NCBI GenBank assembly: GCA_965216315.1
Contig: CBDCFN010000016.1
Span: 2,277,060-2,341,059, forward strand
Length of the DNA stretch: 64,000 bases
Source: a bacterium
Lineage (GTDB): Bacteria > UBA10199 > 2-02-FULL-50-16 > JAJFLM01
Reading direction: 5' to 3'
Translations under genes and position numbers: made by a program
Shown here: in pieces, positions 2,015 to 55,686 of the stretch
How the letters are laid out: the number at the start of each line of letters is the position of its first letter
Numbering within the stretch: position 1 is the stretch's first letter
The notes under the pieces: generated by a model
What the model saw: the letters and a program-made list of their open reading frames with translations, nothing else
Database searches by the model: none
Told to the model about the DNA's origin: nothing

Positions 2015-2794
2015 CTATTCGGGCATTTCCTCGACCGACCCATCCGTATTCATCATTGCCCCGTCTTTTGCGATACGCTCCATGAGTTCGTGTAGTGGAA
2101 CGGCATGACTCCGACGGGATTCAAACTTTCGCTCTTCATGCTTTTCATCCGTCGCCGCACCTTCTTCCGCGTCGTCATCCTCCCGCATTTCCTTTGCTTG
2201 CATCGGCATCAATCCAGCCAGATGACCGTAACTGGATTTATTTAAAGTTGTGAATGAAGTATCCGTCTCTGCTTCGGTATTCGGAAGCGCGACCCAACGA
2301 TCGTCGTCGAGAGCCAGACCAAGCTGTCCCCAGCTTAGCGGACGTTCGCTCGCCTCGACATGAAGCTGTTCACTCAAACCCTCTTCCGTCGTGAAAAGCA
2401 AAGGGATCTGCTCCTCGCTGCTGAGACTCAAGGAGAAATGATAATACTGCCCGGTCTCAACCCAAAAACTAAAACGACACTCGAAATCGACCGAACCGAT
2501 GACGACGGTTTGAGGACCCTGCTGCACCCAAATCTGGCGTCCGACGCAGTCGCCGTCGCCCGCGAATTCCGCTTCTGCCTGCCACTCGGACTGCGGCGGC
2601 ACCATGCCGATGATCTGGCGATAGGCGGACGGTGGATTACCGGCCTCGGTCCCGCCTTGAAACTGGCTTAGCGGCGGCTGCGTGCCGCAGGCAAAGCCGC
2701 CCAGGGCCTGAATGAACAGGCCCACCACGATGACGATGCATTTTCGTATGGTGTATTCTCCCGATAAGATATTTTGCTTAAGTGAGAACATCAC
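2015..2794 (-). CDS. lipoprotein with GGTEAGNP motif (third gene of the module at 2.0-4.6 kb)
   Basis: 259 aa ORF; N-terminus charged n-region then hydrophobic stretch and lipobox GGFAC; GGTEAGNPP motif soon after the Cys; acidic C-terminal region. Confidence 0.55.
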   Translation of the reverse strand: MMFSLKQNILSGEYTIRKCIVIVVGLFIQALGGFACGTQPPLSQFQGGTEAGNPPSAYRQIIGMVPPQSEWQAEAEFAGDGDCVGRQIWVQQGPQTVVIGSVDFECRFSFWVETGQYYHFSLSLSSEEQIPLLFTTEEGLSEQLHVEASERPLSWGQLGLALDDDRWVALPNTEAETDTSFTTLNKSSYGHLAGLMPMQAKEMREDDDAEEGAATDEKHEERKFESRRSHAVPLHELMERIAKDGAMMNTDGSVEEMPE

Positions 2795-2835
2795 CTAAGT
2801 TATCGAAAGAATAAAGGAAATGTTGTATACAGCGG

Positions 2836-2862
2836 AAAATATCTGTTGACTCAAGTCAACAG
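2836..2862 (-). promoter_or_regulatory. motif copy CTGTTGAC-TTGA-GTCAACAGATATTTT (read on minus strand), upstream of the 2015-2794 lipoprotein gene
   Basis: perfect 8 bp inverted repeat with 4 nt spacer plus AGATA extension; overlaps a 10 bp stem hairpin (2859-2883) that spans the stop codon of 2871-3695. Confidence 0.45.
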
Positions 2863-2870
2863 CTGCGCCT

Positions 2871-3695
2871 TTAGCGCAGCTGTTCGTGCAGATCTTCCGG
2901 ATCTTCGATCGGCTGCTGCGCGCCACCGATCTCATTCAATGATTTGATGACCTTAATAACGCTGTCTCTTTTGATCATCATTTTATCATCACCCTGTTCT
3001 TCTTCCTGCTCCGTAATACCGTAAGTTCCGGTGAACGGATTAGTCACCTCTTCGGCGCCTTGATTCTCCTCGGTGCCGCCAAAGCCTTCTGCAGGACCGG
3101 CCTGTTCCGTCTCGTCTTCACCTTCGCCCTCAGGATAATAGGGACCGCCGGTCCCTTCACTGGACCCGCCCGCCCGGGCGGCATAACTATCGCCTTGCTG
3201 GTAGAAGGAGATCTTGCCAATATCGTGGGTCACTCCGCGGCCTTCGAAACGGACATGAGGCGTATCATCATCGCCAAAGCCAACTCGAACCCGGGTGCCG
3301 TCAGGCATTTCAATATCAAACATATACTTGTCGCCAGACCGCAATCCAGGGATCGTAAAATCACAACTCGGCGTTACAGACGCACTTGTCTCTAAATGAG
3401 TGTGCACGTTCGTGGCAATAACCTTAACGCCCGCGCAGGCGTTCGGTAAATTCGGATCAAAACCGGGAATCTCCTGCATACGAGGAACGTTACCGGTCAC
3501 CGAAACGATGCCGGGGTTTTCGGCCTGCCCGGGATCTTGATCAGTCACCGAGGGACCGTTCCTGGGGTTACCCGCTTCGGTACCGCCTCGAAGTCCGGGA
3601 TTTCCTAAACCGCCACCACTACCCCCAGTATTGCAAGCAGTGACCGTTATCGCCACGACAGCCAAGGTTAAAACTAAATTAAATGCTTTCTTCAT
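2871..3695 (-). CDS. lipoprotein with GTEAGNP motif, coupled to upstream TIGR02147-like gene
   Basis: ORF 2871-3734; internal Met (rc ATG 3693-3695) gives lipoprotein signal MKKAFNLVLTLAVVAITVTAC; motifs GLGNPG and GGTEAGNP; 25 bp after stop of 3721-4569. Confidence 0.65.
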   Translation of the reverse strand: MKKAFNLVLTLAVVAITVTACNTGGSGGGLGNPGLRGGTEAGNPRNGPSVTDQDPGQAENPGIVSVTGNVPRMQEIPGFDPNLPNACAGVKVIATNVHTHLETSASVTPSCDFTIPGLRSGDKYMFDIEMPDGTRVRVGFGDDDTPHVRFEGRGVTHDIGKISFYQQGDSYAARAGGSSEGTGGPYYPEGEGEDETEQAGPAEGFGGTEENQGAEEVTNPFTGTYGITEQEEEQGDDKMMIKRDSVIKVIKSLNEIGGAQQPIEDPEDLHEQLR

Positions 3696-3720
3696 GATGT
3701 AACACCCTTTCGTACGCTTC

Positions 3721-4569
3721 TTACGCTCTTTCATGTTTTGTCACCGGCAGCATCTGGATACTGAGCAAGACAACATCATCTGGATTGTCATCGTCAGCAA
3801 CCAACTGGAGGATTTCGCGTCGAAACTCCTGAATGCGTTTTTTGATCTGCGGGACTCTTTCTTTAATAATTCCTAAAGTCAGAGCACTGACATCCCGTTC
3901 TTTTTGTTCCACCTCGGGAAGCTGCCCTTTTAATAAATCAAACAAACTCTGGTGATAATTTAAAAGCACGAGGGAATCGGCTTCGGCACCGCTCGTTACA
4001 AGCGGTGTCGCCTGTTTCCACTTATTGGTCACCGCATCACGCTCAATAAAATGAAGTCGCGCCAACAATTCGACGGACTTTTTTACTTGCGCGGGAGACA
4101 CTTCCGGCTGCAATCTTTTAGCCAACCACTCGATTGAACCGTCAAAATCCTTAGAAATGATCAACTCGCGCACAACCGGATGATACCAGGTTGAAAAATA
4201 CTCGTAACGATCCTGCGCAAGTGGCTCTAACTGACTGTAGCGTTGAGAACGAATCAACTTCTTATAGTAAGCGTTTTTTTCCGCGTGCGTTTTCGCCTGA
4301 TTAAAGAAGACGAGATTACGAAAGTGCTCGCGCTCCGGACGCTCCAGTTTGATTCCTTTAATGAATTTCTTGAGGCTTTCCTCAGTCAGGTTACGTTCGC
4401 CATCCATGACGAGTTTAAAAATATTGGAGGATTTAAAGCCGGCTTGCCGGGAAAAGACCCGATATGAAAACCCGTACCGCTCTTTGGCCGATTCATACCA
4501 ATCGCGCAAGAAGGCCCGGTAATCCATATAATCGAATACTGAGACGTTATTGTTGCCGTTGTTACCCAT
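3721..4569 (-). CDS. XRE-type HTH protein, TIGR02147/DUF4423-like paralog 1
   Basis: 282 aa; conserved N-terminal block DYRAFLRDWYESAKERYGFSYRVFSRQAGFKSSNIFKLVMDGERNLT (HTH_XRE-like, GxRNLS end); paralogous to 7373-8233, 10214-11062, 18151-18723, 43573-44427. Confidence 0.75.
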   Translation of the reverse strand: MGNNGNNNVSVFDYMDYRAFLRDWYESAKERYGFSYRVFSRQAGFKSSNIFKLVMDGERNLTEESLKKFIKGIKLERPEREHFRNLVFFNQAKTHAEKNAYYKKLIRSQRYSQLEPLAQDRYEYFSTWYHPVVRELIISKDFDGSIEWLAKRLQPEVSPAQVKKSVELLARLHFIERDAVTNKWKQATPLVTSGAEADSLVLLNYHQSLFDLLKGQLPEVEQKERDVSALTLGIIKERVPQIKKRIQEFRREILQLVADDDNPDDVVLLSIQMLPVTKHERA

Positions 4570-4751
4570 GTCACTTACCTATACGCTATTATACCCTGTA
4601 TACTGCCTGTTCTCTAGTTATCGTTCAGCGTCCGGCTTGAGTTGCCTCATTTTGACGAAATTTATCAATTTTTTGTATGCAGCAATCCCTATCTAACTAT
4701 CTGTTATTATTAATTTTTTAATTTCTATCTTATTTATGCCCTTTTTTTTGA

Positions 4752-4790
4752 GTCAACAGGCCCCCCTGTTGACCCAGGTCAACAGATAAT
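4752..4790 (+). promoter_or_regulatory. motif copy GTCAACAGG-cccc-CCTGTTGAC-ccag-GTCAACAGATAAT, upstream of 4873-5463
   Basis: three half-sites of the same 8-mer in alternating orientation about 80 bp upstream of the ORF. Confidence 0.45.
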
Positions 4791-4872
4791 CCTGACGAAA
4801 CGCAACGAAGACTCGAACGAATCCGATAAGTCTCAACGAAACGAACCGCAATTTCTGAGCATGGAGGCAACA

Positions 4873-5463
4873 ATGGGTGAACCAAGCACACTTCTTAATA
4901 TCTATAATAGCACCAAAGACTATATTTGGAACTTAGCCGCTGCGCAGCCCGTGGAAACGGATAGCGATGTCGCTTCCGGCGCTGATGACACGGCGCAAAC
5001 TCATGCGAATACGGATTTACTAGACAAGACCGTCACCCCCTGCAAAAAGGCAACTCCTTCGGTCGTTCGCCTTCATCAAGCCCCGATGCGCCCCGGCCAG
5101 CGGGACGATGGGGATACCGAATTCACCAATTTCATGAAACGACCCGGTTTCGGGCACGACGAACGCGTCGTCAGAGAGCTTGGTTATGCGTTTGACAAGT
5201 CGAAACTACCGGACACGATTACAGTCCGCATGCAAATATCGTCCAATGGAAGTATTGCGGTCGCCGAACTCCCGGAAGACTACAAACCACCGAAGGGCAT
5301 TTCACGGGAGGAAATGAACCACATCATTCATCGAGCGCTCGTGCCTTTTAGCGTGCCTAGCTATGCAGTGCCGGAAGCATCGCGAACGAATCCATGCGCG
5401 TGGATCACGCACACCATATCGCTGAATCCGACACCGGATCCGGCATCAGTACCTAACAGTTAA
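4873..5463 (+). CDS. hypothetical protein
   Basis: ORF 4861-5463; GGAGG SD at 4864-4868 favours the ATG at 4873 (MGEPST...); followed by an intrinsic terminator at 5498-5538; no recognisable domain. Confidence 0.5.
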   Translation: MGEPSTLLNIYNSTKDYIWNLAAAQPVETDSDVASGADDTAQTHANTDLLDKTVTPCKKATPSVVRLHQAPMRPGQRDDGDTEFTNFMKRPGFGHDERVVRELGYAFDKSKLPDTITVRMQISSNGSIAVAELPEDYKPPKGISREEMNHIIHRALVPFSVPSYAVPEASRTNPCAWITHTISLNPTPDPASVPNS

Positions 5464-5470
5464 AAACAGC

Positions 5471-5510
5471 TTACACATACGCACCCATGACACTCCGAAA
5501 AAGGTCATCC
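5471..5510 (+). repeat. direct repeat copy 1 (TTACACATACGCACCCATGACACTCC-G-AAAAAGGTCATCC)
   Basis: 40 bp, 39/40 identical to 5636-5675; runs into terminator hairpin. Confidence 0.7.
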
Positions 5511-5538
5511 TCTTCACCCCTTGAGGATGGCTTTTTTT
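5498..5538 (+). terminator. intrinsic terminator after 4873-5463
   Basis: CATCCTC...GAGGATG stem followed by TTTTTTT (5532-5538). Confidence 0.55.
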
Positions 5539-5548
5539 CGTTCACTCG

Positions 5549-5572
5549 TGTTGACTGACGTTAACAGATAAA
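5549..5572 (+). promoter_or_regulatory. motif copy TGTTGAC-TGAC-GTTAACAGATAA
   Basis: same architecture as 4767-4790 and 5711-5733; sits between terminator 1 and a candidate short transcript. Confidence 0.4.
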
Positions 5573-5635
5573 CTTTTTGCAACGCAACAGTGTGTCGGTA
5601 GGTACCGATAACTAATATACAACAAGTTATTCAAC

Positions 5636-5675
5636 TTACACATACGCACCCATGACACTCCAAAAAGGTCATCCC
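5636..5675 (+). repeat. direct repeat copy 2
   Basis: see 5471-5510. Confidence 0.7.
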
Positions 5676-5700
5676 TCTCCCCGGGGGGATGACCTTTTTA
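5662..5700 (+). terminator. intrinsic terminator, bidirectional architecture
   Basis: AAAAA-GGTCATCCC-tctccccggg-GGGATGACC-TTTTTACTTTT; perfect 9 bp GC-rich stem. Confidence 0.6.
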
Positions 5701-5710
5701 CTTTTAAAGG

Positions 5711-5733
5711 TGTTAACTTACGTCAACAGATAA
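5711..5733 (+). promoter_or_regulatory. motif copy TGTTAAC-TTAC-GTCAACAGATAAAG, upstream of the LysM gene
   Basis: about 100 bp upstream of ATG 5832. Confidence 0.4.
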
Positions 5734-5831
5734 AGCCTTCGTTAACGAATATTAAACAACATCGTTTGCGAATAACCGATAATACTACAGGTAGGCTAAC
5801 TGATAACTCGTTTCAGAAAGGTTGGGATAAC

Positions 5832-6179
5832 ATGTCGTATCAAATTCATACCGTCCGTCCGGGAGACACGTTGGCAAGCATTGCGCGGCACTACGGCGTC
5901 ACCATGCAGCAACTCCGGAAGCTGAATGTTCATCTCACGCAATCGAGTGGCTCGATTCCTCGTACGAGTGCAGGAAGTAAGATTTACGTCGGTGACGAAG
6001 TCCGTATTAAAGAGCTCCTTGAGTGCGGCCGCAACGTCGGGCCTTTTCAGTTGGGTTGTCGTTATGCGTCGAGTGACACATTAAAACTGGAGTTTGGTAT
6101 CAAGGGCGACGTAAGCACACAACCCCTTAATTCCTCAATCATGGTTGGCGCCAGAATCACTTTTTCCGGGGGCAACTAA
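5832..6179 (+). CDS. LysM domain protein
   Basis: MSYQIHTVRPGDTLASIARHYGVTMQQLRKLN is a canonical LysM motif; start taken at the internal ATG 5832 because the upstream part of ORF 5652-6179 crosses a terminator hairpin and a promoter-like motif. Confidence 0.6.
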   Translation: MSYQIHTVRPGDTLASIARHYGVTMQQLRKLNVHLTQSSGSIPRTSAGSKIYVGDEVRIKELLECGRNVGPFQLGCRYASSDTLKLEFGIKGDVSTQPLNSSIMVGARITFSGGN

Positions 6180-6188
6180 ATAGCTGAA

Positions 6189-7376
6189 CTAGGGTTGCGC
6201 CGTAAACGAAGTCGTTGCGGCCTTGGTCTTACCGCCCGTCCCGCAGTCGATTTCATCGACCTTGACCTCGTATTCGGTCCCGGCGGCAAAGGGGTCAACG
6301 CCGTGCTCGCACGCGATCTCATCCGCCCCCAGCTGATGGTTGGTGCAATCGACGTCGATCGCGAGTCCTTTGGGCTGAATAATCAGCGCGCTGGGAAAAT
6401 CGATCAGGCCAAGATGATATTTGCAGCCCAAGCGAACAATCACCTGTTCCGAGAGGCCTACGCCCGTCTGACCGTTGAAGGGATAAATTCTCAAGACCGG
6501 AACCATCCCCCCCAAATCTTCCTCACGACAAGGTGAGCCGGGATCATTGTCATCGATAAAACCATTGAGGTCACAATCCCGCTCCATTTGATCAAGTACG
6601 CCGTCGTTATCATCGTCCGTGTCGATCGCATCCGAGTCCCCATCCTCGTCGCGGTCCGTATAGATCTCCGGATTGTGTTCCGGAATCGCGTCAAGACCCT
6701 CGATCTGCACCCGACCTAAGTCAACGGGTTTCTCGGCCGGGAGCCCGACGTAAAACTCATTTTGGCGGATAAAGGCGCGCTGCTTACTGAGATGTTCCAT
6801 CTTCACGACCAGGCGCGCGACGAGGTCACCGGTCTTTTTTCGGAACTCCAGCATATAAGCGCGCTTGGTCGGCACAGCGAGCTTAAAAGAGCAATCCGAT
6901 TCAATTCTCGTAGTGAGCTCTTGTCGTGCAGAGTTGATCGCGGTCACGGTCGCGGCCGGACAGACCTTGACTACCGCAATTTTAGTCGCCTGCTCGGCCC
7001 ATTCCGTCCGGATGTTTACCAGACTCATCTGCATGAGCGGCCTGATATCCTTATACGGCAATTCGCGCACCGGGCTCTCGATCAGCTGCCGTTCCTCTTC
7101 CACGGGCTGCAGCTGACCGATGATCAGGCGTAGCGGAGCCGGATCCTGATCGTAAGGTGTTCCCGGCCGTGGCCCTGGTCCCGGATCAGTCGGCGTCGCT
7201 TCCGGATTCCCGAAATCCGTTCCCCCGAACTCTGGGTTCCCGAAATCCGTTCCGCTGATCGTTTGCTCGGTATCGACAATGTCCGGTGGTGCGGTATCCG
7301 CTCCCTGCGGCTGGACGCACGCGGCAATAAAAAAGACGAGCGCAATAGTACTGAGCAACCGGCTCCAGCAGGTCAT
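6189..7376 (-). CDS. lipoprotein with tandem GTDFGNPE motifs and thrombospondin-type-3-like Asp-rich calcium-binding repeats
   Basis: 395 aa; lipobox FIAAC; GTDFGNPEFGGTDFGNPE; DRDEDGDSDAIDTDDDNDGVLD and DCDLNGFIDDND; start overlaps stop of 7373-8233 by 4 bp; paralogous to 11507-12652. Confidence 0.7.
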   Translation of the reverse strand: MTCWSRLLSTIALVFFIAACVQPQGADTAPPDIVDTEQTISGTDFGNPEFGGTDFGNPEATPTDPGPGPRPGTPYDQDPAPLRLIIGQLQPVEEERQLIESPVRELPYKDIRPLMQMSLVNIRTEWAEQATKIAVVKVCPAATVTAINSARQELTTRIESDCSFKLAVPTKRAYMLEFRKKTGDLVARLVVKMEHLSKQRAFIRQNEFYVGLPAEKPVDLGRVQIEGLDAIPEHNPEIYTDRDEDGDSDAIDTDDDNDGVLDQMERDCDLNGFIDDNDPGSPCREEDLGGMVPVLRIYPFNGQTGVGLSEQVIVRLGCKYHLGLIDFPSALIIQPKGLAIDVDCTNHQLGADEIACEHGVDPFAAGTEYEVKVDEIDCGTGGKTKAATTSFTAQP

Positions 7377-8233
7377 GATCCACCTGCCTCGTCCGTCGGC
7401 TCTTCGACCATCGGGAATAAATAGATATTCAACTGCAAGACCTCCTCCGTCTCCGTATCATCGGCGACCAGCTTGAGGATGTCCTGTCGAAATTTTTCGA
7501 TTTTCTTCTTTATCTGGTGCAGGCGGGGCTTGGTTACTCCCAAGGTCAACGCCCCCATATAGCGCCTCGGTGCCGGAACGGCCCCAAGCAGGTGGGGGAG
7601 AAGCTTCATCATAGTCTTATGATAATTGAAAAGCTCAACGGATTCAATAGCGGTCCCGGGGGCGAGCACGGAAGAGCTCTGTTCCCAGCGTCCTGACGGG
7701 CTGCGATGGATCAATTCGAGCTTTTCCAAGAGCTCGAGCGAGGCTTCGACCTGCTCCAATTTGATCCGTTTTCCGAGCCGCGTCATCAACCATTCCGGGG
7801 TTCCATCATAGTCCTTGGCCGTGATGAGCTCGCGAATGACCGCATGGTACCAAGCCGAACAATATTCATGCTGATGGGCTCTAATCGGTTGTCTTTGTTG
7901 GTATTTTTTCGAACGCAGCAACAAGTTGTAGTAACGATCCTCTTCTTCATGGGTCTTGGCCTGGTTATACGCGACCAGATTGCTAAAAAAATCGGCGTCC
8001 TGGGCCGCCAGCTTCAAGGCCTTAACCGTCTTCGGCAAGGTATCCGCAGTTAAGTTCCGTTTTCCCTGAATGACCAACATGATGTAGTTGGAGGACTTGA
8101 ACCCGGCGCGTTCCGCAAATCTTCGATAGGACATGGAGGCCCGGGTCTTTTTCTTCGCCTCAAACCAGTCGCGCAAATAGGTACGATAATCGTTGTAATC
8201 GTAGAGATTTATGTCCTCTGCCGGCTCCGACAC
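7373..8233 (-). CDS. XRE-type HTH protein, TIGR02147/DUF4423-like paralog 2
   Basis: 286 aa; DYRTYLRDWFEAKKKTRASMSYRRFAERAGFKSSNYIMLVIQGKRNLT; shared central CSAWYHAVIRELI block. Confidence 0.75.
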   Translation of the reverse strand: MSEPAEDINLYDYNDYRTYLRDWFEAKKKTRASMSYRRFAERAGFKSSNYIMLVIQGKRNLTADTLPKTVKALKLAAQDADFFSNLVAYNQAKTHEEEDRYYNLLLRSKKYQQRQPIRAHQHEYCSAWYHAVIRELITAKDYDGTPEWLMTRLGKRIKLEQVEASLELLEKLELIHRSPSGRWEQSSSVLAPGTAIESVELFNYHKTMMKLLPHLLGAVPAPRRYMGALTLGVTKPRLHQIKKKIEKFRQDILKLVADDTETEEVLQLNIYLFPMVEEPTDEAGGS

Positions 8234-10213: not shown

Positions 10214-11062
10214 TTAAGCCTTGGGGCTCGTTAACGGAAACATGTGAATATTGACCTGAACGACCTCTTCCGGGGTTTCATCTGCGGAGACGAATTTGAG
10301 GATGTCCTGACGAAATTTTTGGACTTTTTTCTTGAGTTGCTCCAGCCTTTCTTTACGCACCCCGAGGGTCAATGCACTGATATCGCGTCGTTCTCCCGGT
10401 ACGGTATCAAGAACCTCCTTGGTCAACTCGAGCATATTATAATGATATGCAAATAATTCGATCGAGCGAACATCCGCCCCCGTCGAAACTAAACTATGGC
10501 TCTGTTTCCACCGACCTTTTTTATTGCGCTTGGCGAAGCCCAAGGTTTCTAATAATTCGAGAGAATGCGTCACATCGGCAACAGATACTTTCGGAAAAAT
10601 CCGTTCCGCAATCCATTCAGCAGTCCCGTCATATTCTTTTGCCGTAATGAGTTCGCGAATGACGGCATGGTACCAACGAGAGCAATATTCATATTGGTGC
10701 GTGCGTATCGGTTCTAACTGGTTATACTTTCTCGACCGCAGCATGCGTTGATAATAACGCTCTTTGTCCCGCTGATGTTCCTCCTGCGTATAATGAACCA
10801 GGTTTTCAAAAAATTCCGTCTCCTGCTTGTTCAGCTTGAGCGCCTTGGCCACTTTAGGAATGCTTTCTTGGCTCAAATTTCGCTTGCCCTGCAACACCAT
10901 CATAATGAAATTCCAGGACTTGAGGCCGGCACGCTCCGAGAACTTTCGATACGACATGCCCGCCCGGGTCTGTTTAGCAGCTTTGTACCAATCGTTTAGA
11001 AAATCACGATAATCTAGATAACTAAACGGGCTGACCTGATTGGCAATGCGTGACTGTGACAT
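10214..11062 (-). CDS. XRE-type HTH protein, TIGR02147/DUF4423-like paralog 3
   Basis: 282 aa; DYRDFLNDWYKAAKQTRAGMSYRKFSERAGLKSWNFIMMVLQGKRNLS; closest in sequence to paralog 5. Confidence 0.75.
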   Translation of the reverse strand: MSQSRIANQVSPFSYLDYRDFLNDWYKAAKQTRAGMSYRKFSERAGLKSWNFIMMVLQGKRNLSQESIPKVAKALKLNKQETEFFENLVHYTQEEHQRDKERYYQRMLRSRKYNQLEPIRTHQYEYCSRWYHAVIRELITAKEYDGTAEWIAERIFPKVSVADVTHSLELLETLGFAKRNKKGRWKQSHSLVSTGADVRSIELFAYHYNMLELTKEVLDTVPGERRDISALTLGVRKERLEQLKKKVQKFRQDILKFVSADETPEEVVQVNIHMFPLTSPKA

Positions 11063-11440
11063 AGGGGTTTCAATGATCTTATAACAACCCCCTCATCAAG
11101 TACACAGAAATTGGCATGATGCTTTTAAAGAAAAGAGGCTAATAATACCTCGCTTTTTAGCAGCGAGTTTTCTGTACACGCTCAATGCACAGAGCCTTGT
11201 TGCAGAGGACACCGGCAAGGCGGCACAGCAGGCAATGACGGGGCGACGACCGGAGAGACGCCGCCCCGCCCAGGGTTCAGCTAGCGGTATTGACCGATTC
11301 CAAGGAAACGGACGCACCCGACAACCACCAGCAGAGCCAGAGTGCCTACAGAGAGAAGAACTGATGACTCGCCCGAACAGTTAGTTATCGGATATATGAG
11401 GTCCGCGGATGCGGATTATCAGCAGAATATTCTATAATCA

Positions 11441-11456
11441 GTGTACTTTAGTACAC
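11441..11456. promoter_or_regulatory. palindromic operator-like site GTGTAC-ttta-GTACAC
   Basis: perfect 6 bp half-sites; preceded by TATAAT on the + strand; in the 445 bp region upstream of paralog 3. Confidence 0.45.
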
Positions 11457-11506
11457 TAACAAGTCTCATTTATTTAACAATTCTAAGCAACTATGATTAG
11501 TCGATT

Positions 11507-14180: not shown

Positions 14181-14275
14181 GATCTTTCCTCCAGTTAGAA
14201 ATTTTTCGGTCCTACTAGTTATCGACTCCGGTGGGGTCTAAGTTGAGCGTCAATGAGGAATATTTACCTAAAACA

Positions 14276-14291
14276 GTGTACATGAGTACAC
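14276..14291. promoter_or_regulatory. palindromic operator-like site GTGTAC-atga-GTACAC
   Basis: 96 bp upstream of the 12702-14180 start, in an AT-rich promoter region. Confidence 0.45.
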
Positions 14292-14396
14292 ATATAATCT
14301 TAATAAAACTTAATTATTTTAATTAGTTAGATAATATTTATTTGAGATATTTGCGAAATTGTTGTCCACATAGACTTGTGGAGTCGGACTGAGGGG

Positions 14397-14985: not shown

Positions 14986-15066
14986 TTTGAGTTAATATTT
15001 TAATTCTCCAATGTCGCTTATTATCGGGAGATGCCATTGAAACGTTTCGTCGGCGCCTAAATTAAC

Positions 15067-15082
15067 GTGTACCATGGTCCAC
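15067..15082. promoter_or_regulatory. palindromic operator-like site GTGTAC-catg-GTCCAC (variant half-site)
   Basis: in divergent region between 14455-14985 and 15144-15686. Confidence 0.4.
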
Positions 15083-15143
15083 TAGAATACCTACCACTCG
15101 ACAGATACAACACAACGCACACACAATCGAACCGATAAACTAT

Positions 15144-18150: not shown

Positions 18151-18723
18151 TCAAACTGGTCTGTCTAATTTTTTATATGTTAGCTTTTTTTCGTCTGGAA
18201 TCACGGGGATGAGTTCGATCGACATCGTCATCATCTCTTCAGGAACGACATCATCGTCGACTAAATTGAGAAGTTTACTCCGAAACTCTCGGATTATTTT
18301 TTTGAGTTGAGGCAAGTTATCTCTAATGATTCCAAAAGTAATCTCACTTAAATCGCGTTTACCCTGATCGAGGCTGAGTGTTTGAAGGCGATGCACATTA
18401 CGAATAGCCATCAGTTCTAGATAGTGTTCCTTAATTTCGTCAGGGCTCTCAGCCTGATTTAAGAAGACGAGATGCCGAAAATACTCCGCTTCGTCGTCTT
18501 CCAAGCGCAAACCTCGAATAAATTTTCTTAAACTTTTTAGTGTTAGGTTGCGGTCGCCATCCATAACGAGCTTGAGGATATTAGAAGAACCAAACCCGGC
18601 ATGTTGTGAAAAGATACGGAGAGAAAATCCGTAGGTCAGGCGCTTGGCACTCTCATACCAGTCCTTGAGAAAAGTCCTATAATCGAGATAATCATAGACA
18701 CAGATGTCGGATACAATATTCAT
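18151..18723 (-). CDS. XRE-type HTH protein, TIGR02147/DUF4423-like paralog 4, shortened (about 190 aa versus about 283)
   Basis: YDYLDYRTFLKDWYESAK...SLRIFSQHAGFGSSNILKLVMDGDRNLT conserved; central block present in the other four copies is missing; start taken at rc ATG 18721-18723; no lipoprotein partner downstream. Confidence 0.6.
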   Translation of the reverse strand: MNIVSDICVYDYLDYRTFLKDWYESAKRLTYGFSLRIFSQHAGFGSSNILKLVMDGDRNLTLKSLRKFIRGLRLEDDEAEYFRHLVFLNQAESPDEIKEHYLELMAIRNVHRLQTLSLDQGKRDLSEITFGIIRDNLPQLKKIIREFRSKLLNLVDDDVVPEEMMTMSIELIPVIPDEKKLTYKKLDRPV

Positions 18724-18936
18724 GCTAAACCTGTATCCGCTTTGATGCCCACTTTCCTTATCGGTCAAAGCCAAATTTTGTTTTCAACTATTTTTAATTT
18801 TTTGAAAAAACTCTTAATTTCAGCGACTTATAATGACTACGAGGCAGGCGGAACGGACCGCAGCCTCTCGGTCCGCCCGCCAGCAGTGCTATCGCACCGG
18901 TCATACCCTCGCGATAGGTGGAGTCATTTTCATCGA

Positions 18937-22316: not shown

Positions 22317-22337
22317 CTCTCACCTTTAAGATTTCAT

Positions 22338-22353
22338 GTGGACCTAGGTACAC
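22338..22353. promoter_or_regulatory. palindromic operator-like site GTGGAC-ctag-GTACAC (variant half-site)
   Basis: 114 bp upstream of 22467-22880; a further GGTACACA half-site at 22368-22375. Confidence 0.4.
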
Positions 22354-22466
22354 TGAGAATTATTTCAGGTACACAACAACGCCTCCACTCAAACCGATAA
22401 AACCCAACGTAGTCATTTATAAAAACTAACAGAGAGTCATCAAATACTCATCGTTAAGGAGATCTC

Positions 22467-30190: not shown

Positions 30191-30295
30191 GCTTACCCTC
30201 CTTAATGCCCACTAACGTAGCAAGTACCATGCCAAAAAAATCGCGTTCATTTTTTGGACCCAGTTGAAATCATTCAGTAAAGTTATCAACAGATT

Positions 30296-30327
30296 TTCTC
30301 ATTTTGATAACGTTATCAAAATGAGAA
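30296..30327. promoter_or_regulatory. perfect 32 bp palindrome TTCTCATTTTGATAAC|GTTATCAAAATGAGAA
   Basis: lies 106 bp upstream of 29852-30190 start and about 120 bp downstream of tRNA-Pro; no T-run follows on either strand, so operator-like rather than terminator-like. Confidence 0.5.
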
Positions 30328-30443
30328 TGTGGAAACGGGTCATCGCAAATATCCTTTTATTTTATCGATAGTTCGCAGCGATATCTGGAGTGAGCTAGGC
30401 GCAGGAGTGACCTAGGGTGCCGAAATTGTGAGCGAAGCAATTG

Positions 30444-30517
30444 TCGGGGAGACAGGATTTGAACCTGCGACCCCTGCGTCCCGAACGCAGTGCTCTACCA
30501 GGCTGAGCTACTCCCCG
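30444..30517 (-). tRNA. tRNA-Pro (anticodon CGG)
   Basis: cloverleaf readable by eye: acceptor CGGGGAG/CTCCCCG, D-arm GCTC..GAGC, anticodon stem CTGCG/CGCAG with loop TTCGGGA, T-arm GGTTCAAATCC; CCA not encoded. Confidence 0.9.
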
Positions 30518-31786: not shown

Positions 31787-31950
31787 GATATTATATGTTA
31801 TAACTATTTGTTTTTATTTATTATTCTATCTATTCTATTTTTTATGTGATTATATATGAAGGAGTTAAAAGTACACGAGGCGAGAACGCAGCAACTTAGA
31901 ATTAATGCCGTCGATAAGACCTCGACTCAAGTGAGGGAGGCTTGTGTGGT

Positions 31951-43409: not shown

Positions 43410-43478
43410 CACACACCTCCATGCTTTTCAAATTTTCGTCAGTATTGACACGAGAGTTGCTACAAGAGAGGTATTTCC

Positions 43479-43495
43479 GTGTACTCTAAGTACAC
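43479..43495. promoter_or_regulatory. palindromic operator-like site GTGTACT-cta-AGTACAC
   Basis: 70 bp upstream of 42867-43409 and 78 bp upstream of paralog 5. Confidence 0.5.
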
Positions 43496-43572: not shown

Positions 43573-44427
43573 ATGATAGTACACGTGACCCCAGTCAAGC
43601 TCTTCGAATACCTCGATTACCGCGAATACCTCAAAGCTTGGTTTGAGGCAGCCAAACAGACACGGGCGGGGATGTCGTACCGGCTCTTTTCCAAGCGGGC
43701 CGGGCTCAAATCGACTAACTTCATCATGCTCGTCATGCAGGGCAAACGGAACTTGAGTGACAAAGCGGCCAAAATGGTCGCGAAAGGGCTCAAGCTGTCC
43801 AAGGAAGAGTCGGAGTTCTTCCGCTATCTCGTCCTCTTTAACCAGGCCGAGGCCCATAACGATAAGGCCCTGTATTATGAGCAGATGCTGCAATTTCGAC
43901 AGTACCGCAAGCACCGGCCGATTAGCCAGGAAGAGTATGCATACTGCTCTCAATGGTATCATGCGGCCATTCGCGAGCTGATCCTTGATCCTGATTTTGA
44001 TGGCAAGCCCACCTGGATCGCGGAACGGCTTGGCAATCGAATTAGCCGCGAGGAGGCTGCAGAATCGCTGAAGTTACTGCAAAAACTGAACTTTGTGCAG
44101 CGCACCCCATCAGGTCGCTGGCAGCAACAGGATGTGACGCTGACGGCGGGATCTCGGGTTGTATCTCTCGAGTTATTCAATTATCATTTAAGTATGATGG
44201 CGCTGTCCCCCCAGTTACTTGAAAGCCTGCCCGGGCAGCGTCGCGATATGAGCGCGGTCACGATGGGTATCGCAGCAGGACGTTTGCCTGAGCTCAAAAA
44301 GAAACTCCAGAAATTCCGTAAGAGTCTCCTCAAATTTTCCGCTGAAGCGGCCGACCCCGAGGAAGTGGTGCAGGTCAATCTCTACATGTTCCCCTTAACC
44401 GTCCCGAAAGGGTGCAAAGACTCATGA
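43573..44427 (+). CDS. XRE-type HTH protein, TIGR02147/DUF4423-like paralog 5
   Basis: 284 aa; YLDYREYLKAWFEAAKQTRAGMSYRLFSKRAGLKSTNFIMLVMQGKRNLS. Confidence 0.75.
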   Translation: MIVHVTPVKLFEYLDYREYLKAWFEAAKQTRAGMSYRLFSKRAGLKSTNFIMLVMQGKRNLSDKAAKMVAKGLKLSKEESEFFRYLVLFNQAEAHNDKALYYEQMLQFRQYRKHRPISQEEYAYCSQWYHAAIRELILDPDFDGKPTWIAERLGNRISREEAAESLKLLQKLNFVQRTPSGRWQQQDVTLTAGSRVVSLELFNYHLSMMALSPQLLESLPGQRRDMSAVTMGIAAGRLPELKKKLQKFRKSLLKFSAEAADPEEVVQVNLYMFPLTVPKGCKDS

Positions 44428-45065
44428 AATTCATATTACTAGGAACTCTGCTCTTCTTATTAAGTGCCTGCGCACCGGGGATGTCTCCCCTTAGCAGCAG
44501 TCCTACTTCAATGGATGCGGAAACGGCAGGTGGTGAGACTGCAGCTCCCGACGACGTCGACGCCGGGAGCCCCCAAGTTGGGGGGACTGAATTTGAAAAT
44601 CCCGAAGCCGGCGGCGCGCCTCCCGATGTACCGGGAGAAGATATCCCCGTCAGCGACGAAGATGATGACCCTAAAGGAAACCCTGCGGACACCGTACAAA
44701 ACAATACGACACGTATTGTCGTAGGCCACTTACAAACCGAAGGGGGAGATAACGATGGCGCGGCCAACCCTCACGTCACGGTTCTCGGCTATGTGAACTC
44801 GAGTTGTCCCGCGGACGATCTTATCATCGTTGACCCGAACGCGAAGGAACAATCGGTCAAGATTGGTCCGAAATGTCTCTTTCAATTCAGTGCCCTAACA
44901 GGTCTTCATTACCAGGTACGCTTCCTAAAAGACGGCGAAATGGTCGCTAAATTTCCCACGCCCCTACTGGTCAAACAGGGGAACCCCCCCCTCGACCTGG
45001 GGAAAATTCGATTTCAGGATGGGCTGGCAATCCGGACCGCTATAGAAAAGAAACTCTCTCCCTGA
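44424..45065 (+). CDS. lipoprotein with GGTEFENPE motif, coupled to paralog 5
   Basis: start MKFILLGTLLFLLSAC overlaps upstream stop (ATGA); GGTEFENPEAGG motif; acidic region. Confidence 0.65.
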   Translation: MKFILLGTLLFLLSACAPGMSPLSSSPTSMDAETAGGETAAPDDVDAGSPQVGGTEFENPEAGGAPPDVPGEDIPVSDEDDDPKGNPADTVQNNTTRIVVGHLQTEGGDNDGAANPHVTVLGYVNSSCPADDLIIVDPNAKEQSVKIGPKCLFQFSALTGLHYQVRFLKDGEMVAKFPTPLLVKQGNPPLDLGKIRFQDGLAIRTAIEKKLSP

Positions 45066-53637: not shown

Positions 53638-53652
53638 TTATTTCCTTGCTAT

Positions 53653-53668
53653 TTGAACGATCGTTCAA
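53653..53668. promoter_or_regulatory. candidate SOS (LexA) box, perfect palindrome TTGAACGATCGTTCAA of GAAC-N4-GTTC type
   Basis: 16 bp perfect inverted repeat 50 bp upstream of the lexA-like start. Confidence 0.6.
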
Positions 53669-53717
53669 TAGACTCTTTTGAGTGCCAACTCGAAACCCTA
53701 ATAGCCTCGAATCTACC

Positions 53718-54269
53718 ATGACGCCCCTGAGACGCTTCTATCGCGTCCAGGGGCGCATGCCTAGCTACGAGGAGATGAAGGAGCTGTATGGCTATGCCTC
53801 CAAGAATGCCGCTTATTACCTGGCGAATAAGCTGATCGAGGCGGGATATATTATTAAAGATGCTACCGGACGCTTGTTGCCAGCGGGGAAGCACTTTGGT
53901 CTGCCTGTCCTAGGCTATGTGCAGGCCGGCTTCCCCAGCCCGGCGGAAGAGGAACTCATCGATACCCTGAGCCTGGACGAGTACCTGATCGAGAGCCCGG
54001 AGATGAGCTTTATGCTCAAGGTCACGGGAGACTCGATGATTGAGGCGGGGATCCATCCGGAAGACCTCGTCATCGTCGAACGAGGCCAACAACCGAAGAA
54101 CGGCAACATCGTCTTGGCTCAAGTGGATGGGGAATGGACTCTCAAGTATTATCAAAAAAAGAAGAACCAACTCTTCCTCGTCCCCGCCAATCATAAGTAT
54201 CCGATTATCCGACCCGAACGCGAATTGAGGGTCGAGGGAATTATTCGCGCCGTTATTCGAAAATATTGA
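53718..54269 (+). CDS. lexA: LexA-like repressor (S24 peptidase family)
   Basis: N-terminal winged-helix region, Ala-Gly cleavage site context (VQAGFP), S24 catalytic GDSM and downstream Lys; start at ATG 53718. Confidence 0.75.
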   Translation: MTPLRRFYRVQGRMPSYEEMKELYGYASKNAAYYLANKLIEAGYIIKDATGRLLPAGKHFGLPVLGYVQAGFPSPAEEELIDTLSLDEYLIESPEMSFMLKVTGDSMIEAGIHPEDLVIVERGQQPKNGNIVLAQVDGEWTLKYYQKKKNQLFLVPANHKYPIIRPERELRVEGIIRAVIRKY

Positions 54270-54384: not shown

Positions 54385-55686
54385 ATGAACCCGATCACAA
54401 TTCGTTCTTGGCCCAGTGCGATCGCGCACGTGGATGCCGATGCCTTTTTTGCAAGCGTGGAACAGGCCCTCCATCCCGAATACCGTGGTAAACCCATCAT
54501 TACCGGCGCTGAACGTGGCATTGTCGCGTGTGCCAGTTACGAGGCCAAGGCCCTCGGCATCCGACGGGCCGTGAGCCTCAAAGAAGCCAAGGCCATCTGC
54601 CCGCAGCTTATTATCGTCCCTAGCGACTATGAGACTTACAGTCTGTTTTCCAAACGCATCTTCGCAATTCTCCGCCGTTTCTCTCCCCAGGTCGAAGAGT
54701 ACTCCATCGACGAAGCCTTCGTAGACCTCAAAGGACTGCGCCGCGTCCATCATTGCTCTTACCCTCAGATTGCTGAAAAGATGAAAACCGCGATTGAGAG
54801 TGAGCTGGGCATTACCGTCTCGGTAGGTCTCAGCCTTTCCAAGAGCTTAGCAAAACTCTGTTCTAAACGAGATAAACCCGATGGTTTTACGGCAATCCCG
54901 GGTCGAGAGATCCACCAACTCTTACAAACCACACCACTCCAAGAGGTTTGGGGCTTCGGACCTAACACCACGGCCCTGCTCCAAAAAAACGGGCTCCGTA
55001 GCGCTTGGGATTATCTACAGTTGCCGATTGATTTTATTAAGAAGCGTCTCGGCAAAGTGGGATTGGAACTCTACTATGAACTCAGAGGCGAATCACTTTA
55101 CAAAGTCGACCGCGTCCTCAAATCGACTTATGCGAGTATTTCCAAATTCAAAACCTTTGCCCCGGCTTCACGTGACCGATCGATGGTTTATGCTCGGGCC
55201 TTACGTAACCTCGAATCCGCTTGTATCAAGGCCCGCCGCTATCAACTCCAGACCAAGCGACTTGTCTTGATATTGCGTGCCCAGGACTTTTCCAGTCGTG
55301 CGCAAGAAGTCCGGCTCTCTCGACCTAGCGCCTATCCACTCGAACTTCAAACCGCACTCCAACAACTCTTTGCTAATCTGTTTGAGCCCAGACAACTCTA
55401 CCGCGCCACCGGCATAGTCCTCACTCACCTGACCACCACTGACGGCCAACAATTTGATCTCTTCGAAGATCCCGTTCGTGTCATCAAAATCAGCCAGCTT
55501 TATGAGTCGATTGACGAGATCAATGCGCGCTATGGCAAACACACAGTGTTTTTAGGGAATGAAGTGGTGATTCGCGGCGCTCATTCCGGCCGCCGCGGCA
55601 AAGCCCCCACGCGCCAAAAGAATTTACTCAAAGGAGAAACGGGGCGACAAAGAATTGGAATTCCTCGACTGGAATATAAAATCTAG
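54385..55686 (+). CDS. Y-family DNA polymerase (UmuC/DinB-like translesion polymerase)
   Basis: IAHVDADAFFASVEQ, SIDEAF catalytic motifs; 433 aa; downstream of lexA-like gene. Confidence 0.85.
   Translation: MNPITIRSWPSAIAHVDADAFFASVEQALHPEYRGKPIITGAERGIVACASYEAKALGIRRAVSLKEAKAICPQLIIVPSDYETYSLFSKRIFAILRRFSPQVEEYSIDEAFVDLKGLRRVHHCSYPQIAEKMKTAIESELGITVSVGLSLSKSLAKLCSKRDKPDGFTAIPGREIHQLLQTTPLQEVWGFGPNTTALLQKNGLRSAWDYLQLPIDFIKKRLGKVGLELYYELRGESLYKVDRVLKSTYASISKFKTFAPASRDRSMVYARALRNLESACIKARRYQLQTKRLVLILRAQDFSSRAQEVRLSRPSAYPLELQTALQQLFANLFEPRQLYRATGIVLTHLTTTDGQQFDLFEDPVRVIKISQLYESIDEINARYGKHTVFLGNEVVIRGAHSGRRGKAPTRQKNLLKGETGRQRIGIPRLEYKI

Follow-up and report, generated by a model that had tools for sequence, protein, structure and literature searches.

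A recurrent 18-bp palindrome is the likely operator of an adjacent TIGR02147/DUF4423 protein and lies upstream of putative alternative-sigma-type promoters

Results

We examined a stretch of 64,000 nucleotides (nt) of bacterial DNA, hereafter the window (GTDB lineage UBA10199; assembly GCA_965216315.1, contig CBDCFN010000016.1, positions 2,277,060 to 2,341,059), in which a gene for a 282-amino-acid TIGR02147/DUF4423 protein (3721-4569, minus strand) is flanked by copies of the inverted repeat TGTTGAC-N4-GTCAACA. Around this gene lie two lipoprotein genes on the minus strand (2015-2794 and 2871-3734) and, on the plus strand, a gene for an orphan 196-amino-acid protein (4873-5463), a candidate small RNA of ~85 nt (5618-5704), and a gene for a 115-amino-acid LysM-domain protein (5832-6179). 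A preliminary description, made from the letters alone, had reported the repeat at four sites. Scanning the 64-kb window with TGTTGACNNNNGTCAACA and allowing at most two mismatches returned exactly four matches, at 2844-2861, 4767-4784, 5549-5566, and 5711-5728. Only 0.15 were expected, and none of 100 shuffled sequences reached four. The recurrence thus stands. All four copies are intergenic and none is within coding sequence, so the motif does not occur at a similar density in coding regions. Each copy lies at most 2 kb from the TIGR02147 gene.

The copies differ in detail. Copy 1 (2838-2861, minus strand) consists of a perfect palindrome at 2844-2861 followed by GATAT, read on the minus strand, and is placed straight after the stop codon and hairpin of the lipoprotein gene 2871-3734. 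Copy 2 (4767-4790, plus strand) is also perfect and continues into GATAAT. Copies 3 (5549-5572) and 4 (5711-5734), both on the plus strand, have one mismatch each and continue into GATAAA; copy 3 begins 9 nt past a terminator and copy 4 begins 7 nt past the terminator of the small RNA. The asymmetric extension noted earlier was therefore recovered as GATAAT or GATAAA at the three plus-strand copies and as GATAT at copy 1, each time on the side nearer the gene. The third half-site noted near copy 2 is also real: GTCAACAG occupies 4751-4758 (plus strand) in the divergent intergenic region and makes a second perfect 7-4-7 palindrome at 4754-4771. Since terminators immediately precede copies 3 and 4, these regions are modular, with the order terminator, operator, promoter, transcript.

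Downstream of each palindrome is a promoter-like element of the form [C/A]AAC-N17-CGATAA, with 38, 39, 39, and 48 nt between the palindrome end and CGATAA. Aligning the flanks placed CAAC 20-21 nt upstream of CGATAA at all four copies. The elements are CAAC-N16-CGATAA at 2800-2825 (minus strand, 38 nt after copy 1), CAAC-N17-CGATAA at 4803-4829 and 5585-5611 (plus strand, 39 nt after copies 2 and 3), and CAAC-N16-CGATAA at 5757-5782 (plus strand). The last begins its CGATAA 48 nt after copy 4, one helical turn beyond the others. Sequences matching [CA]AAC-N16-18-CGATA[AT] occurred 15 times in the window and 1.4 times in shuffled sequences, a 10-fold enrichment, and 11-12 of them were intergenic and faced open reading frames (ORFs). 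Further examples are at 15113-15138, 22374-22400, and 31892-31917 on the plus strand and at 18783, 15047, and 14245 on the minus strand. Being enriched, mostly intergenic, and ORF-facing, the element appears to be a general promoter-like element of this organism.

We compared the element with known promoter classes. CGATAA, found at 4/4 sites with a preceding C (three sites) or T (one site), agrees with the sigma28 -10 element GCCGATAA. Extracytoplasmic function (ECF) sigma factors use promoters with AAC in the -35 element, a 16-17 nt spacer, and a -10 element starting with CGT. The AAC and the spacer of our element fit this type; its -10 element is CGATAA, not CGTx. Attack-phase promoters of Bdellovibrio bacteriovorus with mapped starts read TTAAG-N16-CCGATA (PMC3627812). 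No sigma-factor gene was found among the ~65 window ORFs scanned with Pfam.

To relate the repeat to other genomes, we used contigs L024, L025, L050, and L051, obtained via homologues of the adjacent DUF4423 protein. A palindrome or a symmetric variant was present in every one. Overall, the five orthologous loci fetched via the protein (64-75% identity) each carried one to four copies or a symmetric variant, with one copy occupying the divergent region that adjoins the TIGR02147 gene. Scanning for the motif itself in 185,579 species genomes, a set without the source genome, gave 23 scattered single matches, approximately the chance number, and only L012, an orthologous locus, was real. A metagenome scan gave 24 matches, most of them unrelated, such as Firmicutes-type operators overlapping a TTGACA -35 element; only L030 showed the full architecture of motif, 48 nt, CCGATAAC, and ORF. 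A TIGR02147 protein was encoded at 0 of the ~46 chance-match loci from the two scans. The motif is therefore a dyad that is enriched, intergenic, and conserved beside orthologous regulator genes, as operators are.

At 17 sites, drawn from the window and from L012, L024, L025, L030, L050, and L051, CGATA[A/T] followed the palindrome end at a distance of 38-40 or 48-49 nt. Two L012 sites deviate in having CGAGAA or GGATAA at the same offset, leaving 15/17 sites with CGATA[A/T]; the chance of CGATA[AT] at one such offset is ~0.003 per site per side. At 17/17 sites the palindrome ended 17-27 bp upstream of the -35-like CAAC, and the core promoter was never overlapped. Spacing classes one helical turn apart and upstream of the -35 element are expected for a factor that faces RNA polymerase, and class I activators behave in this way. 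The shared geometry suggests that the palindrome is an upstream, helix-face-dependent regulator site. The AGATAA/GATAA extension is missing from the GC-richer relatives L025, L050, and L057 (a more distant locus described below). As L025 and L050 lack it, it is not an essential part of the site; at a position of ~-50, it would suit an UP-like element. Equivalents of the extra half-site occur in L025, L050, L030, and L057.

The units behind the motif are poorly conserved in content and in the relatives comprise small ORFs, an 864-amino-acid protein, and a protein like the C-terminal domain of the RNA polymerase alpha subunit (alpha-CTD). This stand-alone domain (Pfam RNA_pol_A_CTD, 94-99 amino acids) is encoded on the minus strand at 2013-2297 of L025 and 4-303 of L050. 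The L025 gene is directly behind a palindrome and a CGATAAC promoter, which is curious given the alpha-CTD-dependent activation proposed below.

The protein encoded at 3721-4569 matched the NCBIfam model TIGR02147 over residues 10-278 with 278 bits (cut-off 50; E = 7e-83) and Pfam DUF4423 with 122 bits. Its AlphaFold model (mean predicted local distance difference test, pLDDT, 84.5) contains two domains of DNA-binding type: an N-terminal XRE-like helix-turn-helix (HTH), in which helix 3 would be SSNIFKLV, followed by a winged helix resembling ArsR, HxlR, and MarR. The N-terminal domain matched C.Esp1396I with a Foldseek probability of 0.97 and a template-modelling (TM) score of 0.56-0.60, so the predicted structure is consistent with the Cro/C1-type fold of the XRE family. 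No Pfam profile, including that of the XRE five-helix HTH, matched residues 1-108 even at E <= 10, and a search of the PDB with the family profile found no sequence relative. The family comprises ~11,000 clusters at 50% identity (E <= 1e-10). In the literature searched for the names TIGR02147 and DUF4423, we found no functional study; the sole paper reports a Bdellovibrio member among those up-regulated when the bacterium grows in prey.

Five TIGR02147 paralogues are encoded in the window, at 3721-4569, 7373-8233, 10214-11062, 43573-44427, and, in degraded form, 18151-18774. The last, a probable pseudogene, is missing ~95 residues from its centre. Outside the window, the same 2.4-Mb contig encodes at least two further paralogues, P0032 and P0072.

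Comparison of these proteins and their homologues revealed that the putative recognition helix varies in step with the local dyad, with five helix types accompanying five half-site types in the protein alignment. The helix SSNIFK (the window protein 3721-4569 and P0003-P0006) accompanies GTTGAC..GTCAAC; PSIFK (P0007) accompanies GTCCAC..GTGGAC; N[FY]IM (three window paralogues) accompanies GTGTAC..GTACAC; [PT]NFFK (P0083 and P0074) accompanies GTATAC..GTATAC, with one copy ~75 nt upstream of the gene and another beyond the partner gene; and SNFLM (P0063) accompanies GTGTTC..GAACAC.

Among 111 homologues, the helix SNIFKLVM also occurs in a few proteins that are only ~57% identical. From these we chose P0033, which is 57% identical overall, for its SSNIFK helix before viewing its DNA. 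In the 20-kb P0033 locus (L057), GTnnAC-N4-GTnnAC palindromes number exactly two, each a perfect GTTGAC-N4-GTCAAC, where ~0.001 was expected by chance. One of the sites is 16 nt before the P0033 start codon and has an extra half-site beside it. This result is the strongest single evidence that an SSNIFK-helix family member and the GTTGAC dyad belong together.

The second dyad in the window, (A)GTGTAC-N4-GTACAC(T), is at 11440-11457, 14275-14292, 15066-15083, and 22337-22354, with a copy that has a 5-nt spacer at 43474-43490. The distances to CGATAA are 39, 40, 49, 49, and 50 nt, and the dyad at 15066-15083 serves two divergent promoter-like elements. The paralogues with the N[FY]IM helix (10214-11062, 7373-8233, and 43573-44427) probably use this dyad as their operator class.

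Each copy of the TGTTGAC motif faces a putative transcription unit. The earlier claim that the copies stand upstream of ORFs in the same orientation holds for three of them (45-100 nt from 2015-2794, 4861/4873-5463, and 5832-6179) and fails for the 5549 copy, which has no downstream ORF. Behind copy 1, the lipoprotein gene 2015-2794 (minus strand) encodes the sequence GGTEAGNP just after the lipobox cysteine. The CGATAA element of this gene ends ~6-8 nt before the first in-frame ATG (2791); either the mRNA is therefore leaderless or the start codon is mis-assigned. Copy 2 faces the orphan gene 4873-5463 (plus strand; alternative start 4861). A search of 5.8 billion sequences for homologues of its product recovered only the protein itself. 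Its 3′ untranslated region (UTR; 5464-5540, plus strand) contains the CTTACACATACGCACCCATGACACTCC segment of the small RNA and then an intrinsic terminator. Copy 4 faces the LysM gene. A mechanically called ORF of 175 amino acids (5652-6179), in frame with this gene, crosses a terminator, the operator, and the promoter. The real start is almost certainly 5832, which places the beginning of the LysM domain at residue 6.

The regulator gene has its own CAAC-N17-CGATAA promoter-like element (4644-4618), which together with the leader and ribosome-binding region spans 4550-4644 on the minus strand. The gene overlaps by 14 nt that of a partner lipoprotein with a signal peptide, a lipobox, and GGTEAGNP (2871-3734, minus strand), and the two therefore form a conserved two-gene operon. 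A lipoprotein gene follows every TIGR02147 gene we examined, often with overlapping stop and start codons. The mature N-terminus of these partners is GGTE[AT]GNP or a close variant (GTDFGNP, GGTEFENP), and the proteins are otherwise very divergent. Lipoproteins of this type are encoded in the window at 2871-3734, 6189-7376, 44412-45065, and 2015-2794, the last being a paralogue of the partner lipoproteins. In the relatives, they are encoded in L012 (2550-3362), L024 (1982-2665), L025 (4941-5480), L050 (3087-3605), L051 (1254-2000), L052 (10839-11861), L054 (10864-11910), and L056 (8856-10325). A signalling role for the partner lipoprotein is speculation.

Copy 3 is followed, after its promoter-like element, by ~85 nt and a strong intrinsic terminator. 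The candidate small RNA in this position (5618-5704, plus strand) would begin with a C-rich, unstructured 5′ region and end in a terminator hairpin of 17 bp (z = -6.1) and its U-run. With its own promoter-like element, an intrinsic terminator, and no ORF, it has the features of a small-RNA gene; the sole ATG (5652) lacks a ribosome-binding site and its frame passes through the terminator. Rfam gave no match at the gathering score, with only sub-threshold noise at E <= 5. A search for other copies of the CGCACCCCAT segment of the RNA found only the expected sites. Two such units are present in tandem in L024, and L012 also has two; none matches Rfam.

The unstructured 5′ part of the small RNA also occurs, with 94% identity, in the 3′ UTR of 4873-5463. 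The two regions belong to a direct repeat with a period of 162 nt (5467-5572 and 5632-5734; 75-94% identity) that takes in the seed segment, terminator, and operator. This arrangement points to a tandem duplication in which the 3′ UTR and operator of 4873-5463 gave rise to the small-RNA gene.

This same 5′ part shows complementarity to the regulator mRNA across the leader, the Shine-Dalgarno region, and the start codon. The predicted duplex between the window RNA and the window regulator leader (-28.2 kcal/mol) was the best of 304 regions, as was that between L024 RNA b and the leader of its own regulator (-29.7 kcal/mol). Both had z = -3.6, for a target that was noticed post hoc. Cross-species pairs were weak (-16.2 and -13.6 kcal/mol), and the pairing of L024 RNA a was unremarkable. 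This pattern hints at a co-evolving pairing and a feedback loop, an idea that we advance tentatively and hold at somewhat less than even chances.

A perfect 32-bp palindrome, TTCTCATTTTGATAACGTTATCAAAATGAGAA, is at 30296-30327, downstream of tRNA-Pro (30443-30517), and is unrelated to the motif studied here. The preliminary description had placed a related half-site beside it. The sequence ATCAACAGAT does exist near 30286; it is single and partnerless and has no promoter element at the characteristic spacing. As ~1 such 9-10-mer is expected by chance, we judged it a chance occurrence outside the system. The palindrome TTTGAACGATCGTTCAAT (53652-53669) is just upstream of a LexA-like (Peptidase_S24) gene (53682-54269), which is followed by a Y-family polymerase gene (54385-55686); these are probably an SOS box and cassette.

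Discussion

In our view, the adjacent TIGR02147/DUF4423 protein is likely to use TGTTGAC-N4-GTCAACA as its operator, which lies upstream of putative alternative-sigma-type promoters and probably supports class-I-type activation. In this model, the protein would be a two-domain HTH regulator that binds the 18-bp repeat, probably as a dimer, via its N-terminal XRE-like HTH. The operators would be upstream of [C/A]AAC-N17-CGATAA promoters, a class apparently used widely in the genome, with a sigma28/FliA-like -10 element and an ECF-like AAC in the -35 element. If transcription is assumed to start ~7 nt after CGATAA, the operator centre would fall near -60 or, one helical turn farther, near -70, and from there the regulator would most likely activate in the style of a class I activator. 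The local regulon would have four members: the lipoprotein 2015-2794, the orphan 4873-5463, the ~85-nt RNA 5618-5704, and the LysM protein 5832-6179. A feedback loop may be closed if the small RNA, along with the identical stretch in the 3′ UTR of 4873-5463, pairs with the regulator mRNA at its ribosome-binding region. Of the earlier proposal that the motif is a promoter plus operator for a dedicated regulator, the operator half is retained and the promoter half is not. Likewise, the suggestion of an alternative sigma factor suits the downstream CGATAA element and not the palindrome itself.

Several observations weigh against this model. The -35 position holds CAAC or AAAC, which matches neither the sigma28 consensus TAAA(G) nor the TTAAG of Bdellovibrio, elements that would be placed 15-16 nt before the -10 element. 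Because the related loci were found through the protein, the co-occurrence of motif and gene is partly ascertained; the real matches found independently of the protein number two, of which L012 has the gene and L030, a 4.1-kb contig, has none within reach. The correlation between helix and operator comes from ~10 proteins and is confounded by phylogeny. In L012, neither of the two small RNAs is complementary to the leader of their regulator. Finally, the L057 operator abuts the start codon of the regulator, which suggests autorepression, and the sign of regulation may differ by site.

This last point bears on the possibility that the same protein uses the same operator as a repressor or anti-activator, by occluding an UP element or an alpha-CTD contact or by looping between sites. 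The structural neighbours of the protein, XRE-family and MarR/ArsR-like regulators, are mostly repressors. In addition to the L057 site 16 nt before the regulator ATG, palindromes in L052, L054, and L056 are 55-78 nt before the ATG, and all are typical positions for autorepression; the extra half-sites and clustered sites could support looping. However, the core promoter is left uncovered at 17/17 target sites, the palindrome ending 17-27 bp before the -35-like CAAC, and spacing classes one helical turn apart are a signature of activators that contact RNA polymerase. We therefore regard repression as unlikely, while taking it seriously. A different, unlinked regulator, for example of the CRP/FNR type (TTGAT-N4-ATCAA, with a 5-4-5 arrangement), would make the adjacency of the TIGR02147 gene a coincidence or a case of co-regulation. 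TTGAC-N4-GTCAA resembles FNR-type boxes, and positions of -61.5 and -71.5 are classic for CRP/FNR class I sites. Yet the Pfam scan of the ~65 window ORFs found no such gene, the type of palindrome varies in step with the TIGR02147 paralogue, and the sites predicted from the P0033 helix were indeed present, making this explanation quite improbable.

The remaining alternatives deny that the palindrome is an operator. Could it instead be an alternative or ECF sigma promoter, with TTGAC as the -35 and GATAA as the -10 element? TTGAC and GATAAT do resemble sigma70 hexamers, and the motif is oriented toward its genes. But TTGAC and GATAA are only 10 nt apart, so the palindrome is not a sigma70-type promoter, and a scan for sigma70 promoters flagged none of the copies. 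Moreover, the site is a perfect dyad; GATAA is missing in L025, L050, and L057 while the palindrome and the downstream CGATAA are kept; and a separately conserved -35/-10-like pair is 20-49 nt downstream. We consider a promoter function of the motif very improbable. It is harder still to credit that the palindromes work as RNA hairpins (terminators or attenuators) or represent a small mobile repeat similar to repetitive extragenic palindromes (REP) or miniature inverted-repeat transposable elements (MITE). A terminator scan did flag the 2862-2843 copy, right after gene 2871-3734, and the units 5467-5572 and 5632-5734 are a 162-nt direct repeat. However, three copies are just past strong terminators or in a divergent promoter region and so are unlikely to be transcribed, and an RNA hairpin or terminator was rejected for these three of the four. 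In addition, the palindromes are followed by GATAA rather than U-runs, mismatches on one side only, which would destabilize a hairpin, occur in 8/17 copies while the half-site is conserved across ~57-75% diverged genomes, and the position relative to CGATAA is fixed. We also rejected an integron attC-like site or mobile repeat, given the 18-bp length of the site, the absence of an integrase, and the fixed placement with respect to promoters.

The proposed arrangement has partial counterparts in known systems. The controller (C) proteins of restriction-modification systems, such as C.Esp1396I and C.AhdI, are also small XRE-type HTH dimers that bind short inverted repeats beside their own genes and act as activators or repressors depending on the site occupied, as might the TIGR02147 protein. 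The fold of C.Esp1396I is the one matched by the N-terminal domain of the model. C-box operators have a GAC(T)...(A)GTC core, to which the present repeat is similar. In contrast to C proteins, the TIGR02147 protein is 280 amino acids with an extra winged-helix/DUF4423 domain and no sequence-level HTH_3 match, its sites are 17-27 bp upstream of the -35 element rather than over it, there is no restriction-modification context, and it is proposed to control several unlinked units, including an RNA. CRP/FNR class I promoters likewise have a dyad with arms of ~5-7 bp and a 4-nt spacer upstream of the -35 element, positions that differ by whole turns, and, as at this locus, A/T-rich sequence separating the site from the promoter, the expected place of alpha-CTD. 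The protein family is unrelated to CRP/FNR, the core promoter here is not sigma70-like, and our positions derive from an assumed start.

The FliA attack-phase regulon of B. bacteriovorus uses a CCGATA(A) -10 element at many non-flagellar genes, including those for secreted or surface proteins and small RNAs (Karunker et al. 2013, PMC3627812). The window shares with it the CGATAA -10 element and a genomic setting rich in TIGR02147 and DUF4215 genes. It differs in that the -35 element is [C/A]AAC rather than TTAAG, upstream palindromic operators are not described in that regulon, and the host belongs to a distant, poorly sampled lineage (best Fmt match 63%). ECF sigma/anti-sigma modules also consist of paralogue-expanded regulators that are co-transcribed with an envelope protein, have private DNA targets, and use AAC in the -35 element; here, the regulator is predicted to be an HTH DNA-binding protein rather than a sigma factor, and the partner is a GGTE[AT]GNP lipoprotein rather than a membrane anti-sigma factor. 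By analogy, the arrangement would work as an HTH regulator whose specificity differs between paralogues and whose dyad operator occupies class-I-like positions on alternative-sigma promoters, and not as a C-protein, CRP/FNR, or ECF system.

A more ambitious generalization is that TIGR02147/DUF4423 proteins are a large, unrecognized family of paralogue-specific transcription factors in which helix 3 of an XRE-like HTH would reveal the operator half-site GTxyAC. A GGTE[AT]GNP lipoprotein, co-transcribed with each regulator, would pass on envelope signals, making the pair a functional analogue of ECF sigma/anti-sigma pairs. The regulators would activate sigma28-type promoters, with at least one branch using a small RNA that feeds back on translation of the regulator. 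In this full form the idea is doubtful, and we offer it as speculation.

The arrangement remains a conventional pairing of regulator and operator and involves no new principle. Nevertheless, TIGR02147/DUF4423 is a large family without an assigned function, and the locus offers a testable one, that of a DNA-binding regulator. It also offers the sequence of an operator, a promoter architecture, a simple code relating helix to half-site across paralogues, and a small local regulon made up of a small RNA and secreted proteins. These features could help to decode regulation in a poorly sampled lineage labelled Deltaproteobacteria and may be relevant to predatory Bdellovibrio-like bacteria, in which sigma28-type promoters dominate one phase of the life cycle.

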